Shown here piece by piece: positions 31,066 through 34,000 of a DNA stretch of 64,000 bases. Made by a program: the position numbers and the translations under genes. How positions within the stretch are numbered: position 1 is the stretch's first letter; each line of letters begins with the position of its first letter. The notes beneath the pieces were generated by a model. That model made no database searches and was not told the origin of the DNA. It saw only the letters and a program-made list of their open reading frames with translations. This DNA comes from Peribolospora baueri (taxonomy: Eukaryota): contig JAMDHS010000018.1 in the NCBI GenBank assembly GCA_029717555.1, forward strand, positions 1 through 64,000, in the 5' to 3' direction.

Positions 31066-34000
31066 TTAGCGCCGCTCGCGCTTCCCGCCTCCAGTTGAGC
31101 CTCCTTTCCGATTACCAGGAAGTCTGTTGACGTTATCGTTGGCCGGCTTCGGCGTTTTCTTGTTGCGATTCTTGTTCTACACAAGGTCAACGAATCGAGT
31201 CAGCGATCGACCTTGGCGACGATCAAATATGAGAGACGTATAGCTAACCTTCACGTTCGCATGACTGAAGAAGTTCTCCGCGGCCTTCTTGTTCGTCGTC
31301 ATCCTCGGCTCTTTGTTCTGTAGCCGCTTCGAACCCTTGCCCGCCTTCTTCTGCTTCTTGGGACTTGGACCTTCGTCTTCGCTCGCTTCGGCTGAGGACA
31401 CTTTGCCGGTCGGCCCTTCCTCTACCGTGCCGAACACTTCATCCCATCCTAACTCCTCTTCTCCGTCCACAGACGCTGCATCCTCCTCCTCGTCATCATC
31501 CTCGTCATTCTCCTCGTCATCCTCCTCCTCGTCAGAGGCCACATCAGAGACGCCTTCTACTTCGACTTCGTCATCGAAGTCATCCTCTGTCCCTCCTTGT
31601 GTGTCCTCGGTTATGAACTTGTTCACAACCGCGATTTGACGGAGAGGTTGAGAGACACCCTTGACGGTCGGGATGGACCGCAGCCCGTGCTGCCGATCCT
31701 CTTCTGTTGGCTCTGTGGCCTGCTTGCCTTTGCCCTTGCGGTCAGAAACGCTTTCGCCCTTCTCGACGCTCGAAGCTTCAGTTCCGGGATCCTTGTTCTC
31801 CGGGGCAGGCGGTGGCACGAAGTAGGGGACCTTGCCTCGGAGCCAGTCGTTCAGGACCATCTTCGCAACCGTCTCAATATCCGGTTCGCCCCCTTTCAGC
31901 AACTTGCCCATCCGCTTGGCGATCTGACCGAGGAAGTCCTCGTGGTCTGTCCAGCTCGTCAGATTGTACGTGCGGCGCAAGTACTCTGATTTCACGCGCG
32001 AGAGCACCGCTGGTATGTGCTCTGCCGGAGTGGCCAAGTTCTCCACTCGAACGACGCCCTTTAGGACCGTGCCTGTTTCCGAGTCATGTGCGGACGCAGG
32101 CACGATGCCGGGACAGTCGATCAGGTAAATGCGGCGCATGAGAGTGATGTATTGCCAAACCTAGATCCAAGTTCGGCATGTCAGCAAAACTCGCCTCTCC
32201 TGTGGTACCGTGATGGAAGATGAACACACCTTGGTCTCGCCGGGAATAGGCGCGACGTCGCAGACCTTCTTCTTCTTGAGCGTATTGATAATGCTGCTCT
32301 TGCCTGTGTTGGGATAGCCGACAAAGCCCACGGAAATTTGCTTCTTGTCCGAGTGCAAGACTGAGAACTGGCGGAGAAGCTGAATTAGGGAGCCCTTGCC
32401 GAACGAGTTGTTGATGGAAGCATGGAAGGCGAGTGTAGGATATTCTTTGGACAAGATCTTGACCCAACGAGCCTGAACACATGGAGGCGGGCGTTAGCTT
32501 TGGAAATCCCCAAATACCCGAGGAGCAAAACCTGCGAGGAGAAACGCAGGCAGGCAACAGGGACCCAAATGAACGAAGAAAAAAGAAATAGAGATGTGCG
32601 TTCCAAAACTAAGAAAGCAGAAACTCGTCTCTCACAACTCTCAAGAGAAGTGGGAGATCCTGCCTTCAACTCTGCGGAACTTTCTTGGCAGCTGTCCCTA
32701 AGCCCCATCTCCGTCGTAACTCAAAACGAGCAGCGACTGAACCCTAACACTCGAATAACTCGAGTTATAGGGCGAGAAGAGAAGGACGAAAGGCTGCAAG
32801 TCGCTCTTCCACACTCGTAACAGAACTATGCGACGGAGAAAGACGTCATGGCAAAGATGACCGCATAGAACTTGACTTGAGGTGTGGTGCTAAATGTCCC
32901 AAAGTCGGGGACGGAAAGAAGGAAAGAAAGGAGAAGAAACCAAGACGAAAGACTCACCGTGACCCACGTGGGCACTAGGTCCACCTTGTTGAGCAAGAAG
33001 ACGAGATGCTTGTGACTTTTCTCCTCTTTGATGTGCTTCTCCACGCTCCTACATCGGGTACCCATGGGGTCGCGCACGTCGAGGACGTGAATGACGACGT
33101 CGGAAGAGTCGATGACCTTGTACAGCTCTCCCCAGATCCTCCTACTTTGTCCCTTGCTGTAGATAGGTTCTGAACGCCCCCGCTGTACGGGAATCTCATA
33201 CGGCTCTACATCTACGAGAGCGGTTGAGCCACCCGCCACGCCAGACTCAACTTCAGCTTTCTCCATGGCCCGAACAAAAGCTTCTTCCTCTTTCTCATCC
33301 TGATTCTTGACTGCCTGAGCGCTCGATTCGGCCAAATCGGCAAAGGATGCCGTATCGCCATCGAGACGAGGTCGCTTGCGCTGTGCGCGCGGTCCAAAGG
33401 TGGAAGCAAATGATTCGGTGGCGACGAGGGAAGGCTTAGACGTCTACAAACCGTCGAAAAAATGGTACGGCAGAGCAATTAGTCATCAGCGAAGAGCGGA
33501 AGCGATACTACAGTTAGGAAAGAACATAAGCAGACACACCGTAGAGGAATCTTGAAGCAAGCTCATGGGAAGCTTGTTCCTCCTCAGAAGAACGCTGTAG
33601 GGGTCATCGACCTTGTTGCCAAGAGAGGTTCGAAAGTGATCAAGGGCAGTCTGGGAAATGACTCGGGTGTTGCCTGATTGATAGAACCCAAGTGCCGGAT
33701 AACAACGCTATCAGTAATGCTGGTATAAACTCAAATCGTCGAGCACCAAGTCCTCGAAGGTGCTTTCCTCTGCCTCGCCTTCTTTTCCATGGGCATACCT
33801 GTCTTCTGCTCCTCCGCATGGAGCCCTAACACTCACCGAACCATCTCCTATCAGGCTGGACCCTCCCAGGAGTAGCCTCAGAGCTTTGAAACTCGGCAGC
33901 TTTGACGATTCTGCCGTCCCTATCGCGAATGGCCTTACTGGCGTTCGAGTTGCCAGACAGGAGCTTGACCCTCTTGGCCTTTTTCGCATCCCGATAGAAG

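Follow-up and report, generated by a model that had tools for sequence, protein, structure and literature searches.

RNAs of the box H/ACA class are stable and are bound by Cbf5, Nop10, Gar1 and Nhp2. One of them, snR191 of Saccharomyces cerevisiae (Rfam RF01263), guides the pseudouridines (Psi) Psi2258 and Psi2260 of 25S ribosomal RNA (rRNA) (PMC5699541; bioRxiv 10.1101/2024.02.02.578723), and vertebrate U19/SNORA74 (RF00090, placed with snR191 in clan CL00043) has the same targets, human 28S Psi3741 and Psi3743, with one site guided per stem-loop (PMC7075261). These two pseudouridines of helix 69 in the large subunit (LSU) are said to be conserved in organisms ranging from bacteria to humans, and yeast without them shows altered ribosome dynamics, reading-frame maintenance and translation dependent on internal ribosome entry sites (bioRxiv 10.1101/2024.02.02.578723). 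Lim et al. (2021, PMC8476143) report an intron position in the gene NOG2 that is conserved in eight intron-poor fungi, four of them basidiomycete smuts and allies, with each of the introns encoding an H/ACA small nucleolar RNA (snoRNA); the same account gives the position as kept in 72% of fungal species. Here we analyse a stretch of 64,000 nucleotides (nt) from Peribolospora baueri (GenBank assembly GCA_029717555.1, contig JAMDHS010000018.1, positions 1 to 64,000), referred to as the window. From its sequence, a long intron in the NOG2 gene of the window very probably encodes an orthologue of snR191/U19 (SNORA74), a predicted box H/ACA guide of about 297 nt for the two helix-69 pseudouridines. 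The locus is a further case of a known RNA in the fungal host arrangement that Lim et al. describe (PMC8476143).

The window locus shares with S. cerevisiae snR191 the host gene, the codon boundary at which the intron lies (residues 270/271), the order of parts (5′ hairpin, H box, central domain, 3′ hairpin, ACA), the two predicted target uridines, one per hairpin, and a central loop of the form C-GUYYU-G. It has nevertheless diverged from its yeast counterpart, scoring 23.8 bits with the Rfam snR191 model, which is below the gathering score. The predicted RNA is also longer (about 297 nt, compared with the 274 nt of L029, a locus with yeast-identical Nog2), its H box ends in G, unlike that of snR191, and its guide arms are longer (5+5 and 5+5 pairs, against 4+6 and 4+4 in L029). 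The lower stem of the first hairpin reads CCACA/UGUGG where the yeast type has CCAAA/UUUGG, which is a compensated change. The SNORA74 consensus resembles the window in its pocket strands (GUCA/GUUAC and GAGAGU/UAGU), in its H box AGAGCAA, one base away from AGAGCGA, and in the central hairpin loop CcGUUUUgG of its consensus line; the SNORA74 model is shorter (201 positions) and gave no reported match on the window. Another arrangement is described for Haloferax volcanii, where stem-loop 2 of sR-h45 guides the two equivalent helix-69 pseudouridines from one pocket that leaves UNUN unpaired, in contrast to the window, yeast and human RNAs, in which two hairpins leave one UN each (PMC7075261).

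The NOG2 (Nog2/Nug2) GTPase gene lies on the minus strand of the window, and the predicted snoRNA is on its sense strand, as given by the strand of the model matches described below. Translation of 32227-32472 (-) matches residues 271-352 of yeast Nog2 (E 1.1e-42), and the intron splits the gene between the codons matching yeast residues 270 and 271. Locus L029 is identical to yeast Nog2 at 60/60 residues (211-270) and 82/82 residues (271-352) and has a 532-nt intron exactly at the 270/271 boundary, with snR191 inside it at 300.5 Rfam bits. Thus, the window intron is at the yeast position and in the same phase, in agreement with the parallel to yeast NOG2 drawn in an earlier note on this DNA. 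The same note had called the intron unusually long, and at 485 nt it is 3 to 7 times the length of the other three introns placed in this gene (163, 96 and 69 nt, the last of which follows the downstream exon). With at least four introns the window gene is intron-rich; the fungi of Lim et al. have the same intron position and an H/ACA snoRNA but are intron-poor (PMC8476143).

The relatives comprise 80 NOG2 loci taken from metagenome contigs, and each was examined for the position of the intron. At the 270/271 boundary, 38 loci carry a long intron (249-932 nt), 13 a short one (49-111 nt) and 21 none, and eight are cut off upstream; an intron is found at this position in 51 of the 72 loci whose upstream exon is present. 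Two covariance models were built with the window left out: R1, comprising the 5′ hairpin and H box (27 relatives), and R2, comprising the 3′ hairpin and ACA (32 relatives). Searched against both strands of the 64-kb window, each model has a sole match, R1 at 32801-32888 (-) (35.3 bits, E 1.4e-5) and R2 at 32592-32683 (-) (36.1 bits, E 2.8e-6), both E-values being rough. Across the 128 kb of searched strand the two models match only the two hairpins that the earlier note had pointed out, and profile searches independent of the window sequence thus identify both hairpins as homologous to the snR191/U19 family.

Among the relatives, the 5′ hairpin is found in all 38 NOG2 loci with a long intron and in none of the 34 with a short intron or no intron. 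By class, R1 matches 38/38 long-intron, 0/13 short-intron, 0/21 intronless and 2/8 upstream-truncated loci, and R2 matches 36/38, 0/13, 0/21 and 6/8, respectively. Matches are not confined to the training sequences: ten further loci for R1 and seven for R2 were recovered, excluding three exact training duplicates in each case, and the yeast-identical L029 is matched by both models. Ten of the 37 distinct 5′ hairpins had been left out of R1 as too long or mis-registered (L004, L024, L029, L030, L031, L038, L049, L054, L056 and L058), and all ten were later matched by it; L004 and L031, also left out of the R2 alignment on account of long insertions, were both later matched by R2. The only long introns without an R2 match are those of L013, whose 3′ hairpin has a large apical insertion, and L002, where the hairpin preceding the ACA (L002:2900-2975 (+)) lacks the GAGU/UAGU strands. 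The NOG2 exon of L002 is 91% identical to that of the window, and this relative may have lost or altered its guide for the second uridine.

Large insertions of up to about 150-210 nt are present in several relatives, either at the apex of a guide hairpin or within the central domain (L013:1312-1781, L031:2310-2436, L004:839-951 and L038:2373-2588), with pocket strands and boxes kept. The short-intron loci (L019, L025, L034, L066-L068, L071-L076 and L080) retain the intron at the same codon boundary. Neither R1 nor R2 found the snoRNA in the fetched flanks of these 13 loci or of the 21 intronless ones; in both classes the snoRNA is located elsewhere or absent, and some of the loci may be transcript-derived contigs or non-fungal.

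All motifs listed in the earlier note were recovered on the minus strand by direct counting on the sequence, and Table 1 collects the parts. Its proposal that both pockets address LSU helix 69 is borne out: each forms 5+5 base pairs around a uridine, the 5′ pocket around the first and the 3′ pocket around the second of two that lie two bases apart, leaving the uridine and its 3′ neighbour unpaired. Read as reverse complements, the target strings of the two pockets agree at all six shared positions and thus define one 14-base target. A search with a 26-base pattern, the upstream flank being left free, located the helix-69 string in 23 fetched genomic loci, 14 of which were tested (11 eukaryotic and 3 archaeal LSU rRNAs); wherever the upstream flank is present, the positions facing the guide are identical. 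The canonical 14-nt spacing claimed for both hairpins likewise holds (32821..32808 before the H box, 32611..32598 before the ACA) and is within the range of about 14-16 nt for H/ACA RNAs. The GAGU and UAGU strands and the ACA are invariant columns in the 32 relatives, which were chosen partly by those motifs. The hairpin-hinge-hairpin-tail layout of H/ACA RNAs is present in the fold, with the ACA directly after the last hairpin, and we infer from the sequence that it lies 3 nt from the 3′ end of the RNA. Model matches, pockets, spacings and host gene together uphold the assignment to the snR191/U19 type, and most likely the predicted RNA is functional, guiding both helix-69 pseudouridines.

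Table 1. Parts of the predicted snoRNA and of its host gene in the window (positions count from the first letter of the window).
Feature	Position	Strand	Basis or remark
Mature snoRNA as predicted (about 297 nt; inferred ends)	32592..32888	(-)	start of R1 match to ACA plus 3 nt, end of R2 match
5′ guide hairpin, lower stem CCACAC/GUGUGG	32809..32887	(-)	fold, Rfam snR191 alignment, model R1
5′ lower-stem strands	CCACAC 32887-32882; GTGTGG 32814-32809	(-)	
5′ pocket strands	AGUCA 32877-32873; GUUAC 32821-32817	(-)	
H box AGAGCGA (ANANNG then A)	32801..32807	(-)	starts 14 nt after pocket top
Central domain, 117 nt, enclosing stem and two inner hairpins	32684..32800	(-)	fold; aligns to Rfam snR191 central domain
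Central hairpin A, CCCUAUAACUCGA-GUUAU-UCGAGUGUUAGGG	32742..32772	(-)	contains palindrome ATAACTCGAGTTAT 32768-32755
Central hairpin B, loop CGUUUUG 32728-32722	32716..32733	(-)	C-GUYYU-G motif
3′ guide hairpin, lower stem GUUCC/GGAAC	32600..32680	(-)	fold, model R2
3′ lower-stem strands	GTTCC 32680-32676; GGAAC 32604-32600	(-)	
3′ pocket strands	AGAGU 32673-32669; UAGUU 32611-32607	(-)	
ACA box	32595..32597	(-)	14 nt after first base of 3′ pocket strand; invariant in 32-relative alignment
NOG2 exon upstream of intron, ends ...VPTWVT	32958..33443	(-)	frame translation and junctions; last 60 residues align to NOG2 loci
NOG2 intron, 485 nt, phase 0	32473..32957	(-)	GTGAGT 32957-32952, branch-type CTAAC 32497-32493, CAG 32475-32473
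NOG2 exon downstream of intron, ARWVK...PGETK	32230..32472	(-)	yeast Nog2 match and placement of next intron

A 303-nt stretch containing these parts folds at -105.6 kcal/mol (z -3.24), and none of 100 shuffles folds as low. The guide strands had been expected in internal loops, which holds for the first pocket, open in the fold as AAGUCA/GUUAC; the second is partly zipped in the minimum-free-energy fold. Covariation in the relatives is consistent with both stems. In the 3′ hairpin, aligned with MAFFT over 32 relatives and given a structure specified by hand, 17 of the 18 pairs show changes on both sides (102 cells; 0/500 shuffles as high), and the covariation score is 0.48, compared with 0.10-0.19 in slid controls. 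The 5′ hairpin (27 relatives) is less varied, with both-sided changes in six of nine pairs (0/500 shuffles). A first MAFFT alignment of the 5′ hairpins gave no pairs in RNAalifold: length differences of 1-2 nt in the 5′ pocket strand had brought the lower stem out of register. The sequences were therefore re-cut and the structure was set by hand.

The earlier note had described the H box as non-canonical. AGAGCG fits the ANANNA consensus at five of six positions, with G at position 6, but this is a recurrent variant of the family and not unique to the window. Of 37 distinct relatives, 13 have G at this position (L007, L008, L012, L016, L020, L022, L027, L030, L031, L033, L035, L056 and L064), and the next base is A in 12 of these 13. 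Four of them (L007, L016, L035 and L064) score above the Rfam snR191 gathering threshold, indicating that the family tolerates G at position 6 of the H box. The H box of the snR191-type family reads ANANNR followed by A. A second H-like box, AGAAAG, before the 3′ hairpin was considered as well and rejected, as it is not conserved in the relatives.

Between the guide hairpins, the earlier note had seen a structured insert of about 120 nt. The region is indeed structured, at about 117 nt, but it is not peculiar to the window copy and represents the central domain of the family itself. The consensus structures of snR191 and SNORA74 in Rfam both include a central domain, and the distance from H box to 3′ hairpin in the relatives ranges from 44 to 214 nt. 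In the window the domain folds at -46.6 kcal/mol (z -3.86; -47.1 kcal/mol and z -3.9 with separate shuffles), and 24 of 36 central domains of relatives have a fold z below -2. A hairpin loop of the form C-GUYYU-G occurs in 33 of the 36 central domains, with a background of 0.03 per 100 nt over all loci, and the snR191 and SNORA74 consensus lines in Rfam show it too. Among 40 instances, the base pair adjoining the closing C-G on its outer side is C-G 22 times and U-A 13 times. In the Rfam alignment, the other inner hairpin of the window, hairpin A, corresponds with high posterior probability to yeast snR191's second central hairpin. The palindrome ATAACTCGAGTTAT had been singled out as a separate feature, which we did not retain: the favoured fold is ACUCGA/UCGAGU with the loop GUUAU, and hairpin A is less conserved than hairpin B.

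The C-GUYYU-G hairpin is shared by the source fungus, yeast snR191 and vertebrate U19, and it could conceivably be a third functional module and not a spacer, for instance a protein-binding element or one that docks the RNA onto the pre-ribosome, although we regard this as rather doubtful; if true, the window would be one more witness of a conserved central element. Pairing of the hairpin B loop with rRNA just upstream of helix 69 was tried as an explanation and dropped, since it fits GUUUU but not the commoner GUCUU. A literature search found no discussion of the C-GUYYU-G element in the sources covered, among which Badis et al. (2003) and Bortolin and Kiss (1998) were not included, and a search combining U19 RNA with MRP RNA returned nothing.

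Searches with the Rfam models for snR191 and SNORA74, proposed in the earlier note as a check, detected the RNA in part. The snR191 model has a gathering score of 46 and matches the window below it, at 23.8 bits; E is 0.024 when 6 kb are searched and 0.0014 for the intron by itself. Its alignment takes in the H box, the hairpin before it and one of the central hairpins; SNORA74 has no reported match. When 18 related loci were scanned, the gathering score of snR191 was attained in half of them (9/18), and snR191 or SNORA74 was matched at E<=1 within the same NOG2 intron in 16. Five of the 14 snR191 matches fall below 46 bits (22.8-39.8 bits), and four of the 18 loci have no snR191 match, two of these four being matched by SNORA74. 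Thus, the Rfam snR191 model fails to cover this part of the family.

Several observations weigh against the window RNA being an intact two-site guide. The relatives behind R1 and R2 were chosen with short guide-motif patterns, so that guide conservation is partly by construction, and the E-values of both models carry the roughness stated above. The target string was taken from the LSU rRNA of other organisms and not from the 25S ribosomal DNA of the source organism. The second pocket is partly closed by three weak AGA-UUU pairs and one isolated U-A, which in this modelled fold is a weak point and not a refutation, and the two inner lower-stem pairs of the 5′ hairpin are unpaired in 18/27 and 21/27 relatives. 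The H box AGAGCG(A) departs from ANANNA, the Rfam snR191 score is below the gathering score, and nothing in the 64-kb window reaches any Rfam gathering score. The Rfam alignment moreover places the ACA at 32696-32691, thereby skipping the true 3′ hairpin; we dropped this placement in favour of 32597-32595, which is backed by R2.

The departure in the H box and the low Rfam score of 23.8 bits could reflect a decaying, inactive snR191 remnant, in which the altered H box blocks assembly into a stable particle. However, both pockets are perfect at 5+5 pairs, both stems and the ACA are intact, and the two supposed defects are shared with relatives: G at position 6 of the H box is found in 13 of 37, including four that reach the gathering score, and 5 of 14 snR191 matches are below 46 bits. 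We therefore give such a remnant a very small probability. The same sub-threshold score, and the existence of structured long introns in general, would also fit a chance resemblance in an intron that is long and structured for some other reason, such as control of splicing. Against this, R1 and R2 have one match each, in the expected place, order and strand, the two pockets yield one consistent 14-base target, and the element occurs in 38/38 long introns at the same NOG2 position, which makes coincidence exceedingly improbable.

A different division of labour, in which only the 5′ hairpin guides helix 69 and the 3′ hairpin targets another RNA, for example U6 small nuclear RNA, or none, has a precedent in published predictions. 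According to Canzler et al. (2018, PMC5824354), the target of the first hairpin is conserved at least in Dikarya, whereas for hairpin 2 the yeast target is predicted in no fungi other than Saccharomycotina and Taphrina, the prediction for this hairpin in many Pezizomycotina being U6-85. L002, with 91% identity by NOG2 protein, points in the same direction, as its 3′ hairpin is without GAGU/UAGU and is not matched by R2. In the window, however, the 3′ pocket forms 5+5 pairs at the second uridine, where L029 has only 4+4, and GAGU, UAGU and ACA are invariant in the 32 relatives, even though these were picked partly by the same motifs. In the window and in all 32 relatives of the set, pairing with the second uridine does not fall below 4+4, the number seen in the yeast type, the relatives being metagenome sequences without taxonomic placement that were selected partly by guide motifs; this pairing contrasts with the restricted distribution predicted by Canzler et al. 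(PMC5824354). No U6 gene was found in the 64-kb window at Rfam gathering thresholds. Guidance by the 5′ hairpin alone is improbable in our assessment, and a guide with both pockets directed at helix 69 is the reading that we prefer.

For such a two-pocket guide, the RNA would be released from the spliced intron by exonucleolytic trimming and would join the Cbf5 (dyskerin) complex. Pseudouridine would then be formed at the first uridine (yeast 25S U2258) under guidance of the 5′ hairpin, and at the second (yeast 25S U2260) under that of the 3′ hairpin. With host and guide on a single transcript, the guide would be produced together with a GTPase that acts on pre-60S particles near the same helix. 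Nog2 is reported to act on pre-60S particles in which helices 68-70 first form and has been named a helix-69 remodelling factor (PMC7385084). The location of the guide inside the gene of this pre-60S GTPase fits a co-ordinated expression of guide and host, adding a case to a published pattern without raising a new question. The linkage of host and guide beyond yeasts, which the earlier note had extended across Dikarya, holds and has already been published (PMC8476143); its breadth across Dikarya rests on that paper and not on the window. For annotation, the long NOG2 intron is now explained and a predicted guide for two modifications is located, in a place where standard Rfam annotation would miss the snoRNA.

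Some 1.7 kb downstream of NOG2 in L001, the closest relative, there is a match to U5 spliceosomal RNA (L001:4928-5045 (-), 40.7 bits; gathering score 40), whereas the window has no U5 match at the Rfam gathering threshold. The C-terminal part of Nog2 in the window, at 31260-31760 (-), is a long low-complexity tail with runs of D/E followed by a K-rich portion, and this acidic and lysine-rich region gives rise to spurious weak Rfam matches to SNORD62 and sR53.

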